Part shown: one piece after another, positions 127 to 63,376 of the stretch
Numbering within the stretch: the stretch's first letter is position 1
Layout: each line of letters opens with the position of its first letter
Virus record (IMG/VR): IMGVR_UViG_3300046681_000127
Length of the DNA stretch: 64,000 nt
Direction: 5' to 3' (one strand)
From: an uncultured virus (IMG/VR IMGVR_UViG_3300046681_000127)
Taxonomy: Duplodnaviria > Heunggongvirae > Uroviricota > Caudoviricetes
Translations under genes and position numbers: made by a program
The notes under the pieces: generated by a model
What the model saw: only the letters and a program-made list of their open reading frames with translations
What the model was told of the DNA's origin: nothing
Database searches by the model: none

Positions 127-579
127 ATGGGTGCAGGACCCTTGCCCAAGGACCCCTCGCAGCGGCGCCGGCGCAACGCCGACACGGTGACGACGACAGT
201 CCTTCCGGCTGCCGGACCTGATGGAGAGACCCCGGGGCTTCCCGGCGGTCATGATTACGACAGTCGCACGCTGTCCTGGTACGAGACGTGGCGAACCTCG
301 CCGCAGGCTGCAACGTTCCTTATGACGGACTGGCAGCGGCTGCACATGCTCGCCGAGTTGGTCGAACAGTATTGGCAGGAGCCGCGAAAGGACCTCCTGT
401 CGGAGATCCGACTCAACGAGGCCGCTTTGGGCGGCACGGCTGCAGATCGGATCCGGATGAGGTGGGTTGTCGCCGATCCGGAGCCCGCCGCAGCTGCAAA
501 GACGCCACGGGGTGGCCGAGGCGCCACTTCCCGCCGCGATCGGATCCTGAAGGCTGTCGATGACCAGGCAGACGCCTGA
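127..579 (+). CDS. terS: Terminase small subunit
   Basis: GPLPKDPSQRRRRNA N-terminus typical of actinophage TerS; overlaps TerL; RBS AAGGAG 111-116 (alternative GTG start at 118). Confidence 0.8.
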   Translation: MGAGPLPKDPSQRRRRNADTVTTTVLPAAGPDGETPGLPGGHDYDSRTLSWYETWRTSPQAATFLMTDWQRLHMLAELVEQYWQEPRKDLLSEIRLNEAALGGTAADRIRMRWVVADPEPAAAAKTPRGGRGATSRRDRILKAVDDQADA

Positions 580-2179
580 TCCTGACCGGTTCGTCTCCCT
601 CGGCTTTACTGCGGTCGAATGGATCGAGAACTACCTGTGCCACGGTCCCGGTGACGTGCAGGGCGAAGAGTTGGTCATCGACGATGAGATGCACGCCTTC
701 ATCGTCAAGGCGTACCGACTTGACGCAACGACCGGCCGCCGGAAGGTCAACCGAGCCTTCCTGTCTCGCCCGAAGGGTCGCGCTAAGAGCGAACTCGCCG
801 GCGCGTTGGTGTGCTTCGAGGCGCTCGGGCCTTGCCGTTTCGACGGCTGGGATGCCAATGGTGAGCCGGTAGGCCGTGAGCAGGTATATCCGTTCATTCG
901 TTGCTTGGCGACGGAGGAGAACCAGTCCGGGAACACTTACGACAACGTCACGGCGATGCTGGAGCACCTTGTCGAGTACTCCGGCGACGAGTTCCCCGGC
1001 ATCGACCTGGGACGGTCGGCGCAGTCATCGAGCCGCATCTTCATCGAGGGCGGCGGGGAGATCGTTCCGTCAACGTCGAGCGGTGCTGCGAAGGACGGCG
1101 GCAAGGAGACGTTCTCGGTCTTCGATGAAACGCACCTGTATGTGCTGCCCGAGCTGAAGGCTATGCACAAGACGGTGCGCCGCAATCTGACCAAGCGGAA
1201 GCGCGCCGAGCCGTGGTCCCTGGAAACATCGACGATGTACGCGCTCGGCGAGGAGTCTGTGGCCGAGGCGACGCACGAGTACGCGAAGGCCGTGAAGGCG
1301 GGTCGAGTAAGGGACGGCGGCCTGCTTTTCGACCATCGTGAGGCCCCACACGTTGAGGACCTGCACGATGACGAGCAGCTGCTTCCGGCCCTGGAGTTCG
1401 TCTATGGCGACGCTGCGCCCTGGATGGATCTGGAGCGAATTGCTTCGGATATGCGTGAGCCGGATACGGACCCGGCGGACGCGCGCCGCTACTTCCTGAA
1501 TCAGCCAGGTACGGCCTCGGCGAAGGCCTTCGACAAGGCCCAGTGGGCGACATTGGCGAACTCCGAGTTCGTGGTGCCCGCGAAAGAGCCGATCGTCATT
1601 GGCTTCGACGGGGCGAAGTGGCGGGATGCCACGGGGTTTGTGGCCACGCACCTGGAGACCGGCTTCCAGTGGCCGCTGGGGGTTTGGGAGGCACCGCTGA
1701 ACAGGCAGGAGGCCGAGGAGTGGGAAGTCCCGGAGAGCGAGGTCAATCTGACGCTCGCCGAGGCCTTCGATACCTGGACCGTGGTGCGCGTCTACGCCGA
1801 TCCGCCCTGGTACGAGGAAACGGTCGCAGCTTGGCAGGGCAAGTACGGGGAGAAGGTCGTCTCCGAGTGGTGGACTCACCGCGACCGGGCGATGGCGTTC
1901 GCGCTTCGGGGCTACAAGACGGCGCAGACGGCCGGGGACCTAACGCACGACGGTGACGAGGCGTTCGCTCGGCACATAGCGAATGCGGTGAAGCGCAACG
2001 CGCGAGCTCGGGACGACGAGGGCAAGCCGATGTGGACGATCCAGAAGGACCGCCACGACTCGCCCCGAAAGATCGACATTGCCATGGCCGGCTGCCTCTC
2101 ATGGGAAGCCCGGCGGGACGCGATCGCCGCAGGCCAGAACAAGCCCAAGAAGAAGTCGAAGATGCTGATTCTGCGCTAG
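560..2179 (+). CDS. terL: Terminase large subunit
   Basis: Walker A-like SRPKGRAKS, Walker B SVFDETH, nuclease GFDG...DAT and KIDIAMA motifs. Confidence 0.95.
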   Translation: MTRQTPDPDRFVSLGFTAVEWIENYLCHGPGDVQGEELVIDDEMHAFIVKAYRLDATTGRRKVNRAFLSRPKGRAKSELAGALVCFEALGPCRFDGWDANGEPVGREQVYPFIRCLATEENQSGNTYDNVTAMLEHLVEYSGDEFPGIDLGRSAQSSSRIFIEGGGEIVPSTSSGAAKDGGKETFSVFDETHLYVLPELKAMHKTVRRNLTKRKRAEPWSLETSTMYALGEESVAEATHEYAKAVKAGRVRDGGLLFDHREAPHVEDLHDDEQLLPALEFVYGDAAPWMDLERIASDMREPDTDPADARRYFLNQPGTASAKAFDKAQWATLANSEFVVPAKEPIVIGFDGAKWRDATGFVATHLETGFQWPLGVWEAPLNRQEAEEWEVPESEVNLTLAEAFDTWTVVRVYADPPWYEETVAAWQGKYGEKVVSEWWTHRDRAMAFALRGYKTAQTAGDLTHDGDEAFARHIANAVKRNARARDDEGKPMWTIQKDRHDSPRKIDIAMAGCLSWEARRDAIAAGQNKPKKKSKMLILR

Positions 2180-2182
2180 GGG

Positions 2183-3625
2183 GTGCCTGTGGAGCGCTCC
2201 GAGCTGCAGTGGTTGACGCATCTGATCTCGTGCCACGACAAGGAGCTTGCCGAGCTCAAGCGCCTGAACTCGTACTACGAGGGCTCTCAGCCGCTGTCGT
2301 ACATGGCGCCGGAGCTCCAGGTGGAGTTGCAGGAGACGGTGCGGCAGGTCGTCATCAACTGGCCGCGCCTGATCGTCGATTCGATCGAGGAGAGGCTCGA
2401 TGTCGAGGGCTTCCGTTTCCCCGGCGTGGCGGATGCCGACGATGAACTGTGGCGGATCTGGCAGGCCAATGACATGGATGAGCAGTCGCAGATGGGGCAT
2501 CTGGATGCCTTGGCGATGCGGCGCTCGTACATCGTGGTGGGCGCGAATGAGGATGACGACTCGACTCCTCTGATCACCGTCGAGAGCGCCCTGGACATGT
2601 TCGCGGAGTTCGATCCTCGGACGCGTCGGGTGGCTGCGGCGGTGAAGCGCTGGCAGGAGGACGGCGAGGGTGATCGGAAGGTCGACCACGCGACGCTGTA
2701 TCTGCCGGATGTCACGGTGTGGTGGGTGAAGGAGTCGGGTCACTGGGTCGAGGACCCGGAGTACCCGCGGGATGAGCACGAGACGGGCGAGGTTCTCGTC
2801 GAGGTGCTGCCGAACCGTCCGCGCCTGAAGTGTCCGGGCGGGGTGTCGGAGCTTCAGGACGTGATCCCGCTGTCCGACGCGGCCTGCAAGATCGCCACGG
2901 ACATGATGGTCAGCGCCGAGTACCACGCGACGCCGCGAAGGGTGGCGTTCGGCTTCGGCGAGGAGGACTTCGTCGACGAGTCCGGCCGCCGGGTGTCGGC
3001 GTTCAGCCGGATCATCGGCCGGATGTGGGCGACGGAGCGCTCCAAGCAGGACGGCGCGGACGTCGTCCAGTTCCCCGAGGCGTCGCTCAGCAACTTCCAC
3101 AGCACGCTGAATCAGCTCGCCCAACTCGTCAGCTCGCTGTCGGGCCTGCCGCCGCAGTTCCTCGGCTACTCGACCCAGAACCCGGCGTCAGCCGACGCCA
3201 TCCGGTCCTCCGAGACTCGTCTGGTGAAGCGCGCGGAGCGGAAGCAACGCGCCTGGGGCGGCTCGTGGGAGCGCGTCATGCGGCTCGTCCTTCGAGTGAA
3301 GGATGGCGAGTGGGATCCGGCAGCCAGATCACTAGAGACGATCTGGCGGGACGCTTCGACCCCGACCGTGGCACAGGTCGCGGATGCCTCAGTGAAGAAG
3401 TTCCAGGCGAAGATCGTGCCCCTTCGGCAGACGCGCGAGGACCTGCGGTACACGCAGGCACAGATCGAGCGCATGGAGGAAGAGGACGAGGCCGCGGCGC
3501 AGGATGCCATGCAGCGCATCATGGCCGGCGACCTCGCGGCGCTGGATTCGGGCGTGAAGCCGCCGATGGAGCCGGTGCCGATGCCCGCTGAGCCCGTTTC
3601 GGAGCCTGAGCCGGTGGGTGGCTGA
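2183..3625 (+). CDS. Portal protein (SPP1 gp6-like)
   Basis: YYEG, NWPRLIVD..ERL, NPASADAI motifs; follows TerL. Confidence 0.92.
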   Translation: MPVERSELQWLTHLISCHDKELAELKRLNSYYEGSQPLSYMAPELQVELQETVRQVVINWPRLIVDSIEERLDVEGFRFPGVADADDELWRIWQANDMDEQSQMGHLDALAMRRSYIVVGANEDDDSTPLITVESALDMFAEFDPRTRRVAAAVKRWQEDGEGDRKVDHATLYLPDVTVWWVKESGHWVEDPEYPRDEHETGEVLVEVLPNRPRLKCPGGVSELQDVIPLSDAACKIATDMMVSAEYHATPRRVAFGFGEEDFVDESGRRVSAFSRIIGRMWATERSKQDGADVVQFPEASLSNFHSTLNQLAQLVSSLSGLPPQFLGYSTQNPASADAIRSSETRLVKRAERKQRAWGGSWERVMRLVLRVKDGEWDPAARSLETIWRDASTPTVAQVADASVKKFQAKIVPLRQTREDLRYTQAQIERMEEEDEAAAQDAMQRIMAGDLAALDSGVKPPMEPVPMPAEPVSEPEPVGG

Positions 3626-4644
3626 CATGGCCGTAGCTCACCTGACGGCCCGGGATGTGGCGCTGGCGTTCCAGGCGGCGCAGGCGCGGCGGGCCCGAGC
3701 GGCGGCCAATCGAGTGCAGGATCTGTGGCGGCAGCTGGACCCGGGTGATCTGTCGAGGTCGTGGCAGATCTGGGTGGGTCCGCAGGTCGTCAACACAGTG
3801 ACGGCGGCCCAACTGGCTTCGGCTGCGGCGGCTGACGAGTACGTGGACGCCATGGTCTCTGCCGAGGGCGCTGATCCTGATCGTGCTGGCCGGACTCGCG
3901 CGGAGGCTTTCGCCGGGGTGGCGGCGGATGGTCGGTCGTTGGATGACCTGCTGCATTTGCCGATCATCACGAGCAAGATGCGTATCGCGGGCGGTATGGA
4001 TGTCGAGGAAGCGCTGATGTCGGGGCTGCGGCAGGCGCTGATGCTGTCCTCGTCGGAGGTGACGCAGGCCGGCCGGGGTGCAGTGGGTTCGTCGATGGCT
4101 GGGCAGCGCACGATCCAGGGCTATGTGCGGGTGGTCAACCCGCCCGCCTGTAGCCGGTGCATCCTCCTGGCCGGGAAGGAGTACGGGTGGAATGCTGGCT
4201 TTCAGCGCCACCCCCGATAGTTGCGACTGCACCCACCTTCCGACGACGCTGATTGCCCGCCACCAGTACCGGAACGGGTTCCTCAACCCGGACGCGTACT
4301 TCAAGGGCTTGTCCCGGGCTGAGCAGGACCGAATCTTCACTGCGGCCGGGGCGCGGGCGATCCGCGAGGGTGGCGATATCACCGCGATCGTGAACGCCCG
4401 TCGCGGCATGTACACCACCACGACTTACGGCCGGACGGTGCGTGCGACTCGTGAGGGTACGACGCGCCGCGGCCTGTTCTACCAGGCGGAGCGGCGCCGG
4501 GCGATCGCCGCAGGGCGCATCCCGACCTCTGGGCGCGGCTTCCGTTTGATGACGCCTCGACTCCTCCCCGAGGAGATCTTCAAGCTCGCCGGGTCGCGCG
4601 ATGAAGCAATCGCCATGCTCAGGCGCTTCGGCTACCTCTACTAG
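3618..4644 (+). CDS. MuF-like minor head protein, interrupted by a frame break and TAG at 4218-4220
   Basis: ACSRC...GFQRHPR* in one frame (3618-4220) and CDCTHLP... in the +1 frame (4222-4644); together they rebuild the CxxC...HPxCxC motif. Confidence 0.7.
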
Positions 4645-4707
4645 CCGATTTTTCGACGGCCGTGCGCAAGGCGCGGTCTCTGATCCCGCAACGGGAGACA
4701 CACCACC

Positions 4708-5460
4708 ATGCACAGCATCCGTAAGAGCTGGCTGTCCGCTGCTCACGGCGCGGACTGGTTCCGGCTGGACCGTCACAACGAACCCGACCCCGCGGACCCG
4801 GCCGACCCGGATCCCGCGGACCCCAAGGGCGACCCGGACCCGGTAGATCCGGAGCCCGACGCCGATCCTGCCGACTCGGATCCCGAGCCGGACCCGGAAG
4901 GTGCCGACAAGCTGGGTGACGCCGGCAAGAAGGCCCTCGACAAGATGAAGGCCGACCGGGCCGCCGCGAGGCAGGAGGCTGCGACGGCCAAGCGCGAGGC
5001 TGCGGCGCTGGCGAAGAAGGTCGCCGAGTTCGAGGACCGCGACCGTTCCGATCTGGAGAAGGCGACGGCGAAGGCCGATCGTCTCGCCGAGCAGGCTGCG
5101 AAGGCCACGGCACGGGCTGTGGCGGCCGAGGTGCGGGCGCTGTCGACTGGGCGCTTCGAGGATCCGACTGATGCGGCGGAGACGCTGATGCGGGATCCGT
5201 CGCAGTACGTCCTCGACAGCGGCGACATCGACACTGACGCCATCCAGGCGGCCCTCGACGGCCTACTGGAGCGCAAGCCCCACTGGGCGGTGTCCGAGTC
5301 TGCCCCGGTGGAGCCCGAGAAGGCGCCCAAGCCGCGCCCGAAGGCCGACCCCGGCCAGGGCGCACGGCCGAACACTCCGCCGACCGACTTCCGCACGGCT
5401 CCGAAGGAAGACTTCCACGCCGAGCTCGCCAAGTACGGCTTCAGGCCGCGCTGGTCATGA
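4708..5460 (+). CDS. Capsid scaffolding protein
   Basis: Asp/Pro repeats, LGDAGKKAL motif, coiled coil, KPHW; upstream of capsid gene. Confidence 0.85.
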   Translation: MHSIRKSWLSAAHGADWFRLDRHNEPDPADPADPDPADPKGDPDPVDPEPDADPADSDPEPDPEGADKLGDAGKKALDKMKADRAAARQEAATAKREAAALAKKVAEFEDRDRSDLEKATAKADRLAEQAAKATARAVAAEVRALSTGRFEDPTDAAETLMRDPSQYVLDSGDIDTDAIQAALDGLLERKPHWAVSESAPVEPEKAPKPRPKADPGQGARPNTPPTDFRTAPKEDFHAELAKYGFRPRWS

Positions 5461-5645
5461 TCGAAGTCCGCGCCCGGTTGGGCGACGGGCGCACCTCGAT
5501 TGAGGTGGCCGGTCATGAGGAGCAAGTCGCCGGGGGTCTCGCCTGCGCCTACGTGACGGCCGTTACCCAAACCGCATTGCTCGGCCTTCAGGCGATTGCC
5601 GAGCAATACCCGGACCTCGTGTCCGTAGAAATCATCGAGGAGTAA
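5457..5645 (+). CDS. prp: Minimal Prp-family (ribosomal-processing) cysteine protease
   Basis: IEVAGHE...LACAYVTAV and LQAIAEQYPDLV resemble Prp GH...xCAxVS and QYP motifs; ATGA-coupled to scaffold. Confidence 0.8.
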   Translation: MIEVRARLGDGRTSIEVAGHEEQVAGGLACAYVTAVTQTALLGLQAIAEQYPDLVSVEIIEE

Positions 5646-5648
5646 ATC

Positions 5649-6989
5649 ATGACCCCAACCATGACCGCGGTCCGGCCGCGGCTCACTCTCCGGCCGCGTT
5701 CGACCCGGCCGTGGTTCCGTCTCGACCGTCACGCCGTGGGTGTGCGGTCGAATCTGCCTGCGGCGATTCAGGCGATGCTGCAGAACGGCACGCTGGACCG
5801 GGTGTTCCGGGATTCGCTGGTGCCGCAGTTCCTGTTCCCGCAGGTCGCGGACGCCGAGCCCTGGATGGGCGGCCTGGGCGACAGCAAGATCTTCACCCGC
5901 AAGGGCCTCCTGGCTCCGGCGACGACCCCGGTCACCGGCTCGGACCCGTCTGCTTCGACGTACACGATCGAGCAGTGGTCCGTGGTCATGGACCAGTACG
6001 CGAACAGCATGGACACCAACATGCTGGGCAGCTCGCTGGCGCTGGCCAGCAAGTACCTGGCGGACGTGGAGAACCTCGGCATCAACGCCGGGCAGACCAT
6101 CAACCAGGTGGCCCGCAACAAGCTGTACAAGGCGTACTCGGGCGGCCGGACCTGGTGCACCACTGCCGGGTCCTCGGACACCAGCATCATCGTGCAGTCC
6201 ACGAACGGCTTCGAGACCGTCCTGGTCAACGGTGTCCCCACGGCGGTGTCTGCGTCCAACCCGCTCACCGTCAGTATCGCGGGCACCGCAAACACGGTGA
6301 CGGGCGTCAACACCGGCACGAGCACCCTGACCCTGGGCACCGCCCGGGTCGATGTCGCGGGCGACTACGTGGTGGCCGCGAACGCGCCGACGACGATCCG
6401 CGCGACCGGCAACTCCGCCTACGACCTCAGCTCGTCCAACACGGTCACCTTCGCGAACTTCCGGTCGGCGGTCGCCCGCCTGCGGAAGATGGCCGTGCCC
6501 ACCGTGGGCGGCTACTACGTCGCGCACATCGACCCCGACACCGAGGCCGAGCTTTTCGCCGACTCCGACTTCAAGCAGGCCCTGCAGGGCCGCGTCGACA
6601 GCCCCATCTACCGCGACCTGTCGATCGGCCGGTTCGCCGGTATCGACTGGGTCCGCAACCTGGAGGCGCCGACGATCCTCGGCGGCTCGGCGGGCACCCT
6701 CACCGTGCACCGTCCGGTCGTCCTCGGCGCGAACGCCCTCATGTCCGCACCCCTCGACGGCACCGCCAACCTCCTGGCCGGGACCGGCGTGGAAGACGTG
6801 CCCGACATCCGCACCATCCCGGCCTCCCCGGGGGTCGACGTCACGCTGCTGGTGCGCCCGCCGCAGGACCGCCTGCAGCAGGTCGTCACCACCACGTGGG
6901 CGTGGACCGGTGACTTCGGTGTCCCCTCCGATGCGGGCTCCGGCGATGCGGCGCTGTTCAAGCGCGGCGTCGTCATCGAGCACGCCTGA
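5649..6989 (+). CDS. Major capsid protein
   Basis: Position, 446 aa, strongly biased codon usage, HK97-like C-terminal pattern (YVAHIDP...DRLQQ...VIEHA), downstream hairpin. Confidence 0.88.
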   Translation: MTPTMTAVRPRLTLRPRSTRPWFRLDRHAVGVRSNLPAAIQAMLQNGTLDRVFRDSLVPQFLFPQVADAEPWMGGLGDSKIFTRKGLLAPATTPVTGSDPSASTYTIEQWSVVMDQYANSMDTNMLGSSLALASKYLADVENLGINAGQTINQVARNKLYKAYSGGRTWCTTAGSSDTSIIVQSTNGFETVLVNGVPTAVSASNPLTVSIAGTANTVTGVNTGTSTLTLGTARVDVAGDYVVAANAPTTIRATGNSAYDLSSSNTVTFANFRSAVARLRKMAVPTVGGYYVAHIDPDTEAELFADSDFKQALQGRVDSPIYRDLSIGRFAGIDWVRNLEAPTILGGSAGTLTVHRPVVLGANALMSAPLDGTANLLAGTGVEDVPDIRTIPASPGVDVTLLVRPPQDRLQQVVTTTWAWTGDFGVPSDAGSGDAALFKRGVVIEHA

Positions 6990-6998
6990 CCGTCTCCT

Positions 6999-7029
6999 GC
7001 CGGCGCGGACGCATCCCGTTCGCGCCGGC
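6999..7029 (+). terminator. GC-rich stem-loop after capsid gene
   Basis: GCCGGCGCGGACG...CGTTCGCGCCGGC inverted repeat. Confidence 0.5.
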
Positions 7030-7053
7030 GACCCTTCAGGAAGGAGGAGCGAC

Positions 7054-7431
7054 ATGCGTGTGCGCATGCTGAAGGCGGCGAAGGCCTACTGGAATTACGC
7101 CGTCACGGACTTCCCGACAGGCGAGGAGTTCGACGGCGATCTGGCCCGTCACCTCGCCGCCAATACCGAGCCCGGCACCGTGGAAGTACTGGAGCCCGAC
7201 CCGGAGTCGGAACCCGAGGTCGCGGAGGAGCCGGAGGAAGCCCCGGAGTCCGAAGACGACGACCCGGAGCCGGACGGCGACCTGTTCCCCATCGACGGCA
7301 CGGCCGCCGAAGTGCTGGCCTGGGTCGGCGACGACCCGGAGCGGGCGGCTGTCGCGCTGGAAGTGGAGCGGGAGCGGGACAAGCCGCGCTCCACGCTGGT
7401 GAAGCAACTCGAAAAGCTCGCCGAGAGCTGA
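7054..7431 (+). CDS. Head-associated acidic protein
   Basis: RBS AGGAGG; C-terminal AEVLAWVG...KPRSTLV pattern seen after capsid genes. Confidence 0.7.
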   Translation: MRVRMLKAAKAYWNYAVTDFPTGEEFDGDLARHLAANTEPGTVEVLEPDPESEPEVAEEPEEAPESEDDDPEPDGDLFPIDGTAAEVLAWVGDDPERAAVALEVERERDKPRSTLVKQLEKLAES

Positions 7432-7443
7432 GGGGAGGCCGCC

Positions 7444-8079
7444 GTGGCTCTTCCCCTACTGGCGACGGTGGCCGACCTTGAGGACGCGATGCAGCGCCCG
7501 ACGGGCAGCCTGGACGTCACGCAGGCTACGTTGGCACTCCGGCGGGCCTCCGCTCGGGTCCGTCGGTACACCCGCCAGGACATCTCGTTCGTGGCCGGCG
7601 AGACCATCGAAGTCCCGGGCGGCGACAAGGCGTTGCGGACCCCGCAACGCCCCCTCGTGGTGGACGGTTCGAATCCCCTGACGGTCGTCGAGGTCGCCGA
7701 CTTCGGTGGTATCGAGTGGACTGCCGTCGAGGGCCGGGATTTCACGCGGCTCGGCTCCGAGCTGACCCGCGGATACCCCTGGTACCAGCCAACCCGCACG
7801 ATGGGCTGGCCAAGGGGCCGGGTGCTCGGCGTGTGGGCGCCGAAGGTCCGCCTGACCTACTCCCACGGCTACAGCGACATCCCGGACGACATCCTCGACG
7901 TGGTCCTGGACCTGGCAACGATGACCCTCAGCAACCCGGAGAACCTGCGGTCGGTCGCCATCGACGACTACAGCCGCACGTTCGCCTCCGAGACCATCGG
8001 CGGCGCCGCACTCACCAAGCAGCACAAGGAAGACCTGCGGCCCTACCGGGTCGCCGCGTTCAGCGTGAGGACCTCGTGA
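7444..8079 (+). CDS. Head-to-tail adaptor
   Basis: LATVADL, LTYSHGY, IDDYSRTF; position. Confidence 0.8.
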   Translation: MALPLLATVADLEDAMQRPTGSLDVTQATLALRRASARVRRYTRQDISFVAGETIEVPGGDKALRTPQRPLVVDGSNPLTVVEVADFGGIEWTAVEGRDFTRLGSELTRGYPWYQPTRTMGWPRGRVLGVWAPKVRLTYSHGYSDIPDDILDVVLDLATMTLSNPENLRSVAIDDYSRTFASETIGGAALTKQHKEDLRPYRVAAFSVRTS

Positions 8080-18515: not shown

Positions 18516-20210
18516 ATGCCCCGTCCCGTCGACCAGCTACCCCCGGGCGCCAACGACCTGGCGCGCAAGCTGGCCGCACTGACCGCCGAGGTCCGCGAAC
18601 TGCGGGCGGCCAGACGTCTGGCGCATTCGTCCATCGGTGACACGGGGATGAACGTGCAACCTGATGGCACCCTGAGGATCGGCGGCAGCGTCGTCATCAC
18701 CGGCGACCTGGACGTCAGTGGCGACTTCGCCGGCGGCTCCGCCGTCGACTGGGTCAACGTCCAGCACCACGGCGCGACGGGCGACGACTCCACCGACGAC
18801 CTGGCATCGATCCAGAACGCCATCGACGCCTGCCCGGAGGGCGGCGTCGTCTACTTCCCGCCGGGCCAGTACCGGATCTCCTCCGCCCTCATCCTCAAGC
18901 GGAATCGCACCTACCTGGGATCGCACTCGCCGCGCTGGCAGTACCGGGGCGGCTCCCTGTGCGCCATCAAACCGCACGCCACGTTCTTCTCGGACACCAA
19001 GCTCATCCACATCGCCGACAAGGAGATCACCGGCGAGGCGGCGGACTGCGACGGCGGCCGCATCCAGAACCTGGCCGTCCTCGGCCAGAACGTCGGCAGC
19101 GGCGTCGTCGGCGTGCTCTTCGAGGGCCTGGTGCGGGACTGGGAGATCCGGGGCGTCGACTCGTCCAACACCAGCGGCAACGGCTGGCAGACCCTCGGCT
19201 ACGCCTCCGTGGACACCACCACGCACTACCCGCGCGGCCTCGACCTGTACTCCGTCACCAGCTACTCCGCCCACAACAACGGATTCAGCTTCGCCAACCT
19301 CACCGACTCCATGATCTTCGACGCCCTCGCCGTGTCGGCGACCTCCATCGGGTACCTGATCGACAACCCCGGCGAGAGTAAATTCATCGGCTGCCGCAGC
19401 GTGTTCAACGGCTCCGACGGCTTCCGCATCTCCGGGTCGGTCTCGGTCGGCGGCGCCCAGTTCGTGGGCTGCTCCACCGACCGGAACCAGAACTACGGCG
19501 TCAAGGTCACCGCAACCGGCACCCAGCCGATCACCTTCACCGACCTCCTGAACCGCCGCGACGGCAAGAACAGCAACGCCGGCGGTGGCAGCCTCGCGGG
19601 CGTCGGAATTATCGGCACCTCCGGGAACACCGTGTGCCCGGTCGTCATCACCGGGCTCGCGCAGACCGTCGGCATCGACGACGGCGCCACCTCCACCGGC
19701 AACGACAGCCCGCAGTACGGGGTCCGGGCCGAATACGCCCAGCACGTGTCAGTGCGCGGCGCAGCCTGGGGCGTCACCTCCGCCGTCTACGACGGAGGCA
19801 ACAACACCCACCTGGACGCCAGCACGCTGTACCGGCAGAACGGCCTGGCCTCGGCGCACGCGGTCGACACCGCCGTGGTCGGCACCCAGCCCTCCCTCGC
19901 CTCGCAGTCCGGCGCCGGCACCAGCCCGCCCACACCGACGCTGTCCGCGACCGCCGATGACGCCTACGGCGTGGTGAACCTGGGCACCGGCACCAGTCCT
20001 ACCAGCGGCAGCCAGGTCACCGTCACCTTCAACCACACCAAGGCCCGCACCCCAGTCGTCACCGTCTGCGCCGCCAACGCCTCCACCAACGCACGACAGG
20101 TCGGCGTCAGCAACCTGTCCACCACCGGCTTCAACATCACATTCGGCGTCGCCGGCAGTGCCTCACAGTCCACCGGCACCTACCAAGTTGGCTACGCCGT
20201 CCACGACTAG
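18516..20210 (+). CDS. Tailspike with pectate-lyase-like beta-helix
   Basis: VNVQHHGATGD..DD..SIQNAID...VYFPPGQYRI cap motif, then N/G-rich coil repeats. Confidence 0.8.
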   Translation: MPRPVDQLPPGANDLARKLAALTAEVRELRAARRLAHSSIGDTGMNVQPDGTLRIGGSVVITGDLDVSGDFAGGSAVDWVNVQHHGATGDDSTDDLASIQNAIDACPEGGVVYFPPGQYRISSALILKRNRTYLGSHSPRWQYRGGSLCAIKPHATFFSDTKLIHIADKEITGEAADCDGGRIQNLAVLGQNVGSGVVGVLFEGLVRDWEIRGVDSSNTSGNGWQTLGYASVDTTTHYPRGLDLYSVTSYSAHNNGFSFANLTDSMIFDALAVSATSIGYLIDNPGESKFIGCRSVFNGSDGFRISGSVSVGGAQFVGCSTDRNQNYGVKVTATGTQPITFTDLLNRRDGKNSNAGGGSLAGVGIIGTSGNTVCPVVITGLAQTVGIDDGATSTGNDSPQYGVRAEYAQHVSVRGAAWGVTSAVYDGGNNTHLDASTLYRQNGLASAHAVDTAVVGTQPSLASQSGAGTSPPTPTLSATADDAYGVVNLGTGTSPTSGSQVTVTFNHTKARTPVVTVCAANASTNARQVGVSNLSTTGFNITFGVAGSASQSTGTYQVGYAVHD

Positions 20211-61652: not shown

Positions 61653-61814
61653 GTGTCCAGCAAGCAGCTCGCCATGACCGGCACCGGCACCCTCACCATC
61701 GGCGGTGTCGCCCTCGCCGGCCCCTGGATCCTCGCCGCATCCATAGCCCTCGTGGCTCTCGGCGCGATCCTCGTCCGCGTGGCGTTCCGTCGTCGCAAGG
61801 CGGCCCACCAGTGA
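61653..61814 (+). CDS. Minimal LAxTG sorting-signal membrane peptide
   Basis: KQLAMTG, hydrophobic stretch, RRRK; GTGA-coupled to GT2 (alternative ATG 61638). Confidence 0.65.
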   Translation: MSSKQLAMTGTGTLTIGGVALAGPWILAASIALVALGAILVRVAFRRRKAAHQ

Positions 61815-63376
61815 CCGCCCCGCTCGCGGTCGCGGCCCGCACCAGACCCCGCGTCATCCTCACCGGCGGCCTCATCCTCACCGCCCTCGCCGTATGGGCC
61901 GCCCACCACACCGTGGAAACCCTGGCGATAGCCAACGGCGCACCCTCCGGCCGGCTCACCCTCGTGTACGCGGCGACGTTCGTATTCCTCGCGTTCCAGG
62001 CCGTGCTGTACCACTGCGAGCGCCCTAAGCGGTGCACGCCCCGGCAGGGCCGCCAGTTGGATGCGATGCGCGCCGAAGTGCTGGTGCCCGTCTACCAGGA
62101 GGACGTCGGCTACCTGCGTGCCACTCTCGCCTCACTACTGGCCCAGACTCGGCTGCCGGATGCGGTGCATGTCGTGGACGACGGCTCGACCATCGACTAC
62201 GCGGAGGTGCGGGCCTGGTTCGAGCAGGCAGCAGCAGCGGCCGGTGTGGAGGTGACGTGGCAGCGGCAGGCCAACGCCGGGAAGCGCCACGCCCAGGGTG
62301 CTGGGGTGCGGGTCTCGCCGAACGCCCGCGTGTACATCACCGTCGACTCCGACGCAGACCTGGACCCGCGCGCCATCGAGGAATTGCTGATCCCACTCGT
62401 CGACCCGCGGGTGCAGTCCGTCGCCGGGATCGTCCTCGCCGCGAACAACCGCGGCCCCGCCCGCCCTGACTTCGTGCGGCCGGAAGGTAGTCCGACCCGC
62501 AAGGCCCGGCGCGAGGCGAAGTGGGCGCACCGCCGGCGGCTCGCCGACTGGCGCGGCTCACAACTGCTGTGCCGCATCACGGATCTGTACTACGTCACCG
62601 GGCAACTCACCGACCGTTCCGCCCTGTCGGCAGCGGGTAGCGTGCTGGTCAACTCGGGGGTGCTGGCCGCCTACCGGGCGGAGATCATCCGCGACAACCT
62701 CGACGGCTACCTGTCCGAGACGATCGCCGGCCGCCCGGTCACGTTCTCCGATGACAGCATGCTCACCCTGTACGCGCTGCTTCGCGGCAAGACTGTCCAG
62801 CAGCCGTCAGCGGTCGTCTACACGGCAATGCCCGAGCGGGTCGATCACGCGGTCCGGCAGTACCTGCGATGGATGCGTGGATCAACGATCCGTAGCCTGT
62901 GGCGTCTGCGTTATCTCGAGCCGGCCCGGGTCGCGTACTGGCTGCACCTGATGCGGTGGATGCAGATGGCCGTCGCCACCGTCGTATTCGCCTACCTGTT
63001 CATCGCCCAGCCCGCCGTCGGCCACGCCCCGCCGTGGACCGTCGCCCTCGCCCCGATCCTCATCGGCTACGCGCAAGGCCTCCGCTACCTGACCGTCCGC
63101 CGCCCCGATGAGACGCTCCGATCCCAGCTCGCTACATGGGCCCTCGCCCCGCTGGCCGTGCTGTGGGCGTGGACGGTACTGCGGTCGGTCCGCTGGTACG
63201 CCATGGCGACCTGCCTCAAGACCGGCTGGGGCACCCGCCAGAACGGCGCGGAGGTGTCCCTCGCGCCCGCCATCCCCATCCCGCGCCCGGACGCCGTCAC
63301 GGCCCCGCTGAAGCTCCTGGACCCGCTGACGGACACCACGCTGGAGATGCGGCTCGACGGCCGCGGCGCCGCGTAG
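61811..63376 (+). CDS. Processive GT2 glycosyltransferase (hyaluronan synthase/NodC-like)
   Basis: DDGS, GKR, TVDSD, SG....YR, SDD..LT, QYLRW, WGTR; N- and C-terminal TMs. Confidence 0.9.
   Translation: MTAPLAVAARTRPRVILTGGLILTALAVWAAHHTVETLAIANGAPSGRLTLVYAATFVFLAFQAVLYHCERPKRCTPRQGRQLDAMRAEVLVPVYQEDVGYLRATLASLLAQTRLPDAVHVVDDGSTIDYAEVRAWFEQAAAAAGVEVTWQRQANAGKRHAQGAGVRVSPNARVYITVDSDADLDPRAIEELLIPLVDPRVQSVAGIVLAANNRGPARPDFVRPEGSPTRKARREAKWAHRRRLADWRGSQLLCRITDLYYVTGQLTDRSALSAAGSVLVNSGVLAAYRAEIIRDNLDGYLSETIAGRPVTFSDDSMLTLYALLRGKTVQQPSAVVYTAMPERVDHAVRQYLRWMRGSTIRSLWRLRYLEPARVAYWLHLMRWMQMAVATVVFAYLFIAQPAVGHAPPWTVALAPILIGYAQGLRYLTVRRPDETLRSQLATWALAPLAVLWAWTVLRSVRWYAMATCLKTGWGTRQNGAEVSLAPAIPIPRPDAVTAPLKLLDPLTDTTLEMRLDGRGAA

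Follow-up and report, generated by a model that had tools for sequence, protein, structure and literature searches.

Trimming of phage head proteins by the cysteine protease Prp has been documented for Staphylococcus aureus phage 80alpha alone (PMC5744158), where the host enzyme processes scaffold and coat and the purpose of the trimming is unclear. The sites recognised by Prp, as given in a review (PMC9405229, Table 1), are KLNLQFF↓A in the ribosomal protein L27 and KFNLQFF↓A and KLNLQHF↓A in 80alpha (↓ marks a known or predicted cut here and below). In the S. aureus enzyme the P1 ring is stacked against the catalytic His, and the homodimer interface accommodates P4 and P6 (PMC9405229, section 3.4.1). 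A structure of S. aureus Prp with a chloromethyl-ketone peptide has been solved. The S. aureus enzyme is encoded by the host, has 106 amino acids, belongs to an rplU-prp-rpmA operon and has L27 as an essential substrate. Here we describe a phage-encoded, internally deleted relative of 62 amino acids, called mini-Prp below, from the head module of an uncultured virus of the Caudoviricetes (IMG/VR record IMGVR_UViG_3300046681_000127). The whole stretch of 64,000 nucleotides that was analysed is referred to as the window.

We propose, with a probability of about 70%, that this phage encodes its own small cysteine endopeptidase of Prp lineage, whose predicted substrates are the leaders of the scaffold and major capsid (coat) proteins. 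When synthesised, each of these proteins would carry a dispensable leader at its N-terminus, with W-F-x-L-x-R-H as the leader's end. Mini-Prp, encoded between scaffold and coat on the same message, would bind this sequence and recognise the hydrophobic residues at P6 and P4 together with the ring at P1, much as L/F-N-L-Q-F/H-F is recognised by S. aureus Prp. It would cut after the His, probably as an oligomer, to give a mature coat starting at AVGVRSN and a mature scaffold starting at NEPDP. We infer the proteolysis, the exact scissile bond, the oligomeric state and any role of trimming in assembly from sequence comparison.

The scaffold protein begins MHSIRKSWLSAAHGADWFRLDRH↓NEPDP and the coat protein MTPTMTAVRPRLTLRPRSTRPWFRLDRH↓AVGVRSN. 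WFRLDRH occupies residues 17-23 of the former (nucleotides 4756-4776, + strand) and residues 22-28 of the latter (5712-5732, + strand). The first-pass annotation, made from the letters of the sequence alone, had described an identical seven-residue motif in two otherwise unrelated leaders, and the positions of motif and reading frames agree with this, as does the dissimilarity of the surrounding residues between scaffold and coat. Its statement that the two copies use different synonymous codons holds for two of the seven codons (cgg/cgt and ctg/ctc) but not for the other five, the stretches being identical at 19 of 21 nucleotides. The shared tag is not merely a translated DNA repeat, because the tags of Streptomyces phage Kromp differ from each other (WFQLTRH on the scaffold, gp5, and WFRLDRH on the coat, gp7) and relatives hold many further combinations. 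In a six-frame scan of the whole window, the pattern W-x0-1-F-x-[LIA]-x-R-[HF] was found at two sites only, those in the scaffold and coat leaders; the chance expectation is a mean of 0.07 sites per window (30 mononucleotide shuffles).

Profile comparisons identify the open reading frame (ORF) between these two genes as a true Prp homologue. It matches the Pfam family Peptidase_Prp (PF04327) at E 1.3e-4, and each of 30 aligned relatives matches the family singly (E <= 0.01; best 5.3e-9). A word-index database search retrieved 81 homologues of 58-73 amino acids, 76 of them with a precomputed PF04327 match. We also built a profile of 11 Prps (104-111 amino acids) from rplU-prp-rpmA operons in Bacillota genomes, at least nine of which have a downstream L27 with an N-terminal extension such as MFIRLQLFAHKKG. 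Compared with this operon Prp profile by hhalign, the mini-Prp profile scores 99.4% (E 5e-21), with VCAAVSAITQTALLGL common almost letter for letter. The predicted catalytic dyad consists of G19-H20 (nucleotides 5511-5516) and C30 (5544-5546), all three residues being invariant in the alignment of relatives. Equivalents of Gly21-His22, Gly29, Cys34 and Ser38 (S. aureus numbering) are retained, the last as Thr34 in the window protein and as Ser or Thr in relatives. The Prp-like His/Cys pattern that had first drawn attention to this ORF and its suspected membership of Peptidase_Prp are both confirmed; the corresponding MEROPS family is presumably C108.

Pfam and PHROGs scans place the head module at nucleotides 560-8079 of the window, with every gene on the + strand:

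560-2179, +, large terminase
2183-3625, +, portal protein of SPP1 type (PF05133, E 2e-58; phrog_104)
3618-4220 and 4078-4644, +, VG15/MuF-like head gene in two frames (PF25310; phrog_1522)
4708-5460, +, scaffolding protein of 250 amino acids (phrog_4708 'head scaffolding protein', E 3.2e-24; PF06810, E 3.5e-5); predicted leader residues 1-23, predicted mature start NEPDPADP
5457-5645, +, mini-Prp ORF of 62 amino acids (PF04327, E 1.3e-4; hhalign 99.4% against operon Prps)
5649-6989, +, major capsid protein of 446 amino acids (phrog_1357 'major head protein', E 1.9e-20); predicted leader residues 1-28, predicted mature start AVGVRSNLPAAIQ
7054-7431, +, small ORF between the major capsid and head-tail adaptor genes
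7444-8079, +, head-tail adaptor

The ATG of mini-Prp overlaps the stop codon of the scaffold gene (ATGA). Its final codons, GAG GAG followed by TAA (within nucleotides 5631-5651), lie 6 nucleotides 5' of the coat ATG, at the position expected of a ribosome-binding site, and this role may contribute to the conserved acidic C-terminus of the protein. The closest isolated phage is Kromp (MH744420), with 68% nucleotide identity over the region and identical gene order, and it was the sole DNA match to the region in a search of 50,697 phage records. Kromp gene 6 is the mini-Prp orthologue (62 amino acids, 69% identity) and is labelled 'protease' in the record. For the Kromp coat the predicted leader is residues 1-19, and DIRTTLPAAIR, which follows WFRLDRH, is the predicted mature start; this phage can be grown on S. 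lividans. A protein search of the phage records with mini-Prp returned Kromp and two weak partial Latilactobacillus matches, which we disregarded.

We compared 131 loci, namely 80 from viral contigs (the best 80 of 97), 49 from actinobacterial genomes, Kromp and the window, with reading frames anchored by homology. The genome loci come from Streptomyces, Kitasatospora, Nonomuraea, Microbispora, Actinoallomurus, Glycomyces, Phytomonospora, Kribbella, Catenulispora and others. GH..C is present at all 131 loci. The mini-Prp gene is under purifying selection, which speaks for a functional gene: it has 62-65 codons at all 105 measurable loci (62 at 90 of them), and the median ratio of nonsynonymous to synonymous substitution rates (dN/dS) is 0.24 over 2611 pairs among 73 distinct 62-codon genes, with no pair above 1.

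The leaders accompany the gene. Among assessable leaders, 124 of 129 on the coat and 97 of 100 on the scaffold contain F-x-L-x-R-[HF], and at 91 of 98 loci the motif is on both proteins; the scaffold count leaves out 31 loci whose N-terminus was not anchored by tblastn, many of which visibly carry the motif. Six of the eight misses were inspected and have Ile or Ala at P4 (FRIDRH, FQADRH, FSITRH), the other two being L064 and L072. The loci give the consensus W(P7)-F(P6)-x-L(P4)-x-R(P2)-H(P1), after which P1' is Asp, Ala or Asn, most often Asp. Seven of the 92 distinct scaffold strings have Phe instead of His at P1. The part of the leader before the motif varies from ~6 to ~24 residues, and the spacing from the His to LPAAI in the conserved N-arm of the coat is fixed across loci. 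The co-occurrence of motif and mini-Prp suggested by the single window therefore extends to about 130 loci, and both are missing from the leaderless coat relatives described next.

Two variants of the tags stand out among these loci. Scaffold tags of the Nonomuraea/Microbispora type (L079, L081, L111, L115, L117, L119, L129 and similar loci) end in Phe (WLFDLARF↓DED, RFDLARF↓DED), and the coat tags at the same loci read WAFQLDRH or WAFDLGRH, so that one predicted enzyme would tolerate either residue at P1. Three loci (L053, L056 and L108) carry tandem coat tags, MTLTARRSWFRLDRH↓DGLRTLIPSP...ARPWFDLGRH↓DVRSTLPAAI, which would give two serial predicted cut sites.

The phage records contain no further coat homologues except those, with 30-32% identity, in four records of three Ralstonia phages and in two Komagataeibacter phages. 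None of these relatives has a Prp gene between portal and coat, and none has a leader; both leaders and enzyme are therefore present together or absent together. Their coats align from residue 34 of the window coat, with the Met 3 residues earlier, and start MPISNFPAAL and MAIANFPASL, opposite window coat residues 31-40. These starts lie 3-4 residues further in than the predicted cut. In Ralstonia phage Raharianne the scaffold lacks a leader and its sequence begins MADPDPNPNP, opposite NEPDPADP after the motif in the window. In these alignments, leaderless coat and scaffold begin about where leader cleavage is predicted. Streptomyces phage Rowa has a VG15-like gene (42% identity) but lacks mini-Prp, and neither its scaffold nor its coat has a leader; the tags therefore track mini-Prp and not the gene labelled 'capsid maturation protease'.

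For the hosts we used five genomes reached via prophage loci. In all five the prophage copy is the sole PF04327 match. L27 starts MAHKKG in all five, and in four of them a stop codon precedes this start by one or two codons. The first-pass annotation had stated that Streptomyces L27 is not known to carry the long extension, and this holds in these genomes, which also have no host Prp. E. coli, too, is without Prp (PMC12324487). With neither Prp nor an extended L27 in the host, the protease and its tags are predicted to form a closed phage-borne pair. The arrangement typical of Prp, with the gene between rplU and rpmA and the L27 extension as substrate, is not found here, as mini-Prp lies between the scaffold and coat genes. 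Ten actinobacterial NCBI entries of 62-73 amino acids (P0019, P0026, P0031, P0032, P0037, P0050, P0053-P0055 and P0071) are named 'ribosomal-processing cysteine protease Prp'. As to the substrate this name is probably a misnomer, because each of the five host genomes has an unextended L27 and no Prp homologue other than the copy in the prophage head module.

The register of the tag points to the position of the cut. When F-x-L-x-R-H is aligned on F-N-L-Q-R-F, the conserved P6, P4 and P1 residues fall in register, and a cut after the His is therefore likely. The same register accommodates the His/Phe exchange at P1 and agrees with the starts of the leaderless homologues. We hold a cut at exactly the predicted bond to be somewhat likelier than not. 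The corresponding Firmicute leaders read LKLNLQLF↓AGG and KLKFNLQRF↓AGD in Lactococcus phage PLgT-1 and HFNLQLF↓DDG and FFNLQLF↓DTD in Acutalibacter phage Fontainebleau, and Arg at P2 is already present in Firmicute sites. What sets the actinobacterial site apart is a Trp at P7, a His at P1 and a P3 position that no longer holds Gln. According to PMC9405229, Asp31 of S. aureus Prp is needed for activity and holds the P3 Gln; the loss of this Gln in the tags accompanies the loss of the Asp31 equivalent in mini-Prp. The first-pass annotation had suggested a new specificity; the tag is a diverged Firmicute site in the same register and not an unrelated motif. We speculate that the near-invariant Glu21, which follows the catalytic His, pairs with the invariant Arg at P2.

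Closer inspection of the alignments showed how mini-Prp is shortened. Against S. mutans Prp (2g0i), the mini-Prp profile aligns in two stretches, residues 49-75 being matched by positions 14-38 of the query and residues 122-144 by positions 39-61, and S. aureus Prp (4peo) likewise gives a two-stretch match. In hmmsearch, two stretches (residues ~1-55 and ~76-104) were matched in 15 of 16 full-length Prps, and in a search of cluster representatives two stretches were typical of matches of 100-120 amino acids and one stretch of matches of 58-76 amino acids. The chain does not span the complete Prp fold (~100-115 residues), leaving residues ~55-78 of full-length Prps unmatched. By these alignments, mini-Prp keeps the N-terminal beta-hairpin, the Gly-His catalytic loop and the Cys-bearing helix of Prp, and this helix runs straight on into the terminal part of the second Prp helix and then the last strand, with ~40 internal residues missing. 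The C-terminus of the PLgT-1 Prp, IAEQYPEHVMVEE, closely matches that of mini-Prp, IAEQYPDLVSVEIIEE. A plain C-terminal truncation, as would follow from an hhalign alignment that puts the last mini-Prp strand on the third Prp strand, is less likely than an internal deletion, because HMMER sets the C-terminal third on the Prp C-terminus (15 of 16) and IAEQYP matches PLgT-1. The earlier description as a Prp of about half the usual size is right in that the protein is small (~56-60% of the length of operon Prps), and wrong in that it is internally deleted and not a half. Within the catalytic loop, His and Cys are 10 residues apart, compared with 12 in operon Prps, the hhalign gap of two residues falling at 'eD'. 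The AlphaFold2 (AF2) model consists of strands 2-8 and 13-17, helix 27-50 and strand 55-61. With this small model (predicted local distance difference test score, pLDDT, 70.8), Foldseek gave no match in PDB at E <= 0.001, and a wide VIA-align search reached Z 4.3 at best, none of the 50 matches listed being a Prp; with a model so small and of moderate confidence, these outcomes speak neither for nor against a Prp fold.

Mini-Prps are not peculiar to the window phage or to Actinobacteria, as judged by profile searches. At E <= 0.001 the profile matched 666 cluster representatives, with many of ~60-75 amino acids among the best 150. Five IMG/VR contigs with a guanine-cytosine (GC) content of 46-53% (L158-L162), retrieved with other mini-Prp queries, encode mini-Prps of 62-63 amino acids with a full-length catalytic loop, GHSNYAEHGKDIVC, and these show that the pared-down Prp is not confined to actinophages. 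On each of them, one or more leaders follow mini-Prp, for example FNIQRF↓SEGG, MNLQRF↓NGTG or MDLQLF↓AEGD. Leaders are found on two downstream ORFs in four of the five contigs, and the leaders of every contig belong to the classical N(I/L)Q(R/L)F type. The gene order on L161 is portal, MuF-like, mini-Prp, scaffold, coat.

Several points weigh against cleavage by mini-Prp. The Pfam score of the window ORF, 22.5 bits, is below the curated cut-off of 27, and the AF2 model is of moderate confidence (pLDDT 70.8). The loci are not independent, many being near-identical, and their distinct motif strings number 74 for the coat and 92 for the scaffold. Proteolysis by any mini-Prp is itself predicted from comparison with known enzymes. 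The shortened loop has no counterpart of Asp31, and the region corresponding to S. aureus Asp62-Gly65, which rearranges upon substrate binding (PMC9405229), falls within the deleted segment. With both gone, the 62-residue chain may fail to form a competent pocket alone. In 80alpha, moreover, the phage can do without coat cleavage, and its viability does not depend on cleavage of the scaffold (PMC5744158); trimming may therefore matter little even if it occurs.

Mini-Prp might instead bind the leaders without cutting them, as a small chaperone or coordinator of scaffold and coat folding, with the leaders staying on or going otherwise; we regard this as unlikely. The missing ~40 residues and the absence of an Asp31 counterpart would suit such a binder. 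A chaperone role of Prp appears as heading 3.3.2 in the outline of the review (PMC9405229), and PMC5744158 suggests that the scaffold leader of 80alpha is needed for assembly and its cleavage is not. Mere binding, however, would not need a Gly-His and Cys that are invariant at 131 of 131 loci together with a Ser or Thr kept at the Ser38 position. The starts of leaderless homologues, about where the leaders end (3-4 residues further in for the coat), are also what is expected if the leaders are removed. Still less probable, in our judgement, is decay of the ORF into an inactive remnant of a full-length phage Prp, the shared motif being a leftover. Its size of ~56-60% of operon Prps (104-111 amino acids) and its sub-threshold Pfam score could be read in this way; a remnant is scarcely to be reconciled with a length fixed at 62-65 amino acids in 105 of 105 measurable loci, a median dN/dS of 0.24, the presence of the gene in Streptomyces, Kitasatospora, Nonomuraea, Microbispora, Glycomyces and others, and independent low-GC mini-Prps of the same architecture.

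Removal of the leaders by the VG15/MuF-like product or by a host enzyme, mini-Prp having an unrelated role, is also improbable, more so than binding without cutting and less so than decay. The VG15/MuF-like gene (3618-4644) matches phrog_1522 and phrog_193, both named 'head maturation protease', and Kromp gene 4 is labelled 'capsid maturation protease'. The phrog_1522 match, however, covers positions 23-346 of 591, VG15 is the sole Pfam match, no protease domain was detectable and no PDB sequence matched. Labels for VG15-like genes in 93 phage records are inconsistent, including 'MuF-like minor capsid protein', 'hypothetical protein' and 'protease', and in the window the gene occupies two reading frames. 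Rowa has the gene without any leader, and the hosts are without Prp. We judge that the VG15/MuF-like product is not the leader protease. No S78, ClpP or T4-type protease was found by Pfam and PHROGs among the nine ORFs of the head module (560-8079). The view of the first-pass annotation that no HK97-type protease is evident holds for these nine ORFs, the name 'protease' attaching only to the PHROG matches of 3618-4644. The preferred reading remains that of a phage-borne Prp-lineage enzyme acting on both leaders, and the computational checks suggested in the first-pass annotation and carried out here are in accord with it.

To be read as one product, the VG15/MuF-like gene needs a +1 shift at nucleotides 4200-4235, between conserved RHP and CDC. 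The first frame reads CAC CCC CGA TAG, and a +1 slip on CCC_C yields H-P followed by D-S-C-D-C. The shift recurs at the same spot in L002, L030, L031, L055, L078, L092 and L126; a script counted 6 of 116 assessable loci as shifted and 110 as in frame (L030 and L031 were recognised by eye). Shifted versions have CCC_C and then a zero-frame CGA, followed by TAG or TTA (CGA TTA TTA in L078), and the inserts at the site are 4, 7 or 10 nucleotides long, each giving +1. In DNA this rich in GC, the codons CGA and TTA are seldom used. The shift could be a programmed +1 frameshift, decay or a sequencing error.

The remainder of the window encodes phage replication genes (YqaJ recombinase, WhiB, DnaB and a C5 methylase) and contains no tRNA genes. 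A family-2 glycosyltransferase lies close to the window end (61811-63376). At 18516-20210, a pectate-lyase-like domain was detected in a large ORF 3' of the tape measure gene, and this ORF probably encodes a tail fibre or depolymerase.

A more far-reaching version of the proposal, on which we hold evenly divided expectations, is that the 62-residue chain would be a fully competent sequence-specific cysteine endopeptidase, probably a dimer or higher oligomer. It would represent a core repeatedly pared from Prp by phages, the actinobacterial branch being retuned to W-F-x-L-x-R-H↓D/A/N in Prp-less hosts to give an orthogonal protease-tag pair. To our knowledge, an active 62-residue mini-Prp would rank among the smallest protease subunits known. 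If active, it would define the minimal catalytic core of the Prp family and provide a specific protease of very small size for removing tags, with a site of seven residues. As the phage supplies both enzyme and tags in a host without Prp or extended L27, the role of leader trimming in assembly could be studied without touching an essential ribosomal function.

Prp trimming of a shared scaffold and coat tag (in 80alpha), phage-borne full-length Prps with classical tags in sequence records, and database labels such as 'protease' and 'Prp' are already known. We found no paper on phage-encoded or shortened Prps, though Wall et al. 2015/2017 may mention phage homologues, and the shortened architecture, the spread of mini-Prps, the altered tag and the Prp-less hosts were not found in print. 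The 'alternate protease' Rrp of a 2026 preprint is an N-terminal nucleophile (Ntn) hydrolase and not a Prp. Kromp gene 6 is an orthologue with the same gene order and tags, but the record shows only the label, with no substrate, motif or evidence.

In HK97-type maturation, a serine protease is packaged inside the prohead, removes a long scaffolding (delta) domain and degrades scaffold. The system described here has in common with it a phage-encoded head-module protease that trims the N-terminus of the coat (the cutting being predicted here), but the HK97-type family is unrelated to Prp, and here there is a leader of 13-28 residues together with a separate scaffold gene. The Firmicute phage Prps, those of PLgT-1 (Orf27, 'peptidase'), TP712 and Fontainebleau ('peptidase'), are likewise phage-borne, lie in the head module and accompany scaffold and coat leaders that end in the site; they differ in having 95-98 amino acids, with the middle segment retained, and classical NLQ(L/R)F leaders, whereas mini-Prp is shorter and its tag altered. 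We assume that the hosts of these phages have their own Prp and a long L27. With the host Prp of S. aureus and its phage 80alpha, the system shares the His-Cys dyad in a G-H...C-x-x-x-S context and a short N-terminal tag common to scaffold and coat, in which P6 is hydrophobic, P4 is Leu and P1 carries a ring. Its tag differs in having Trp at P7, Arg at P2, His at P1 and, in most cases, Asp at P1', and its enzyme in a loop that is two residues shorter and has no Asp31 equivalent.

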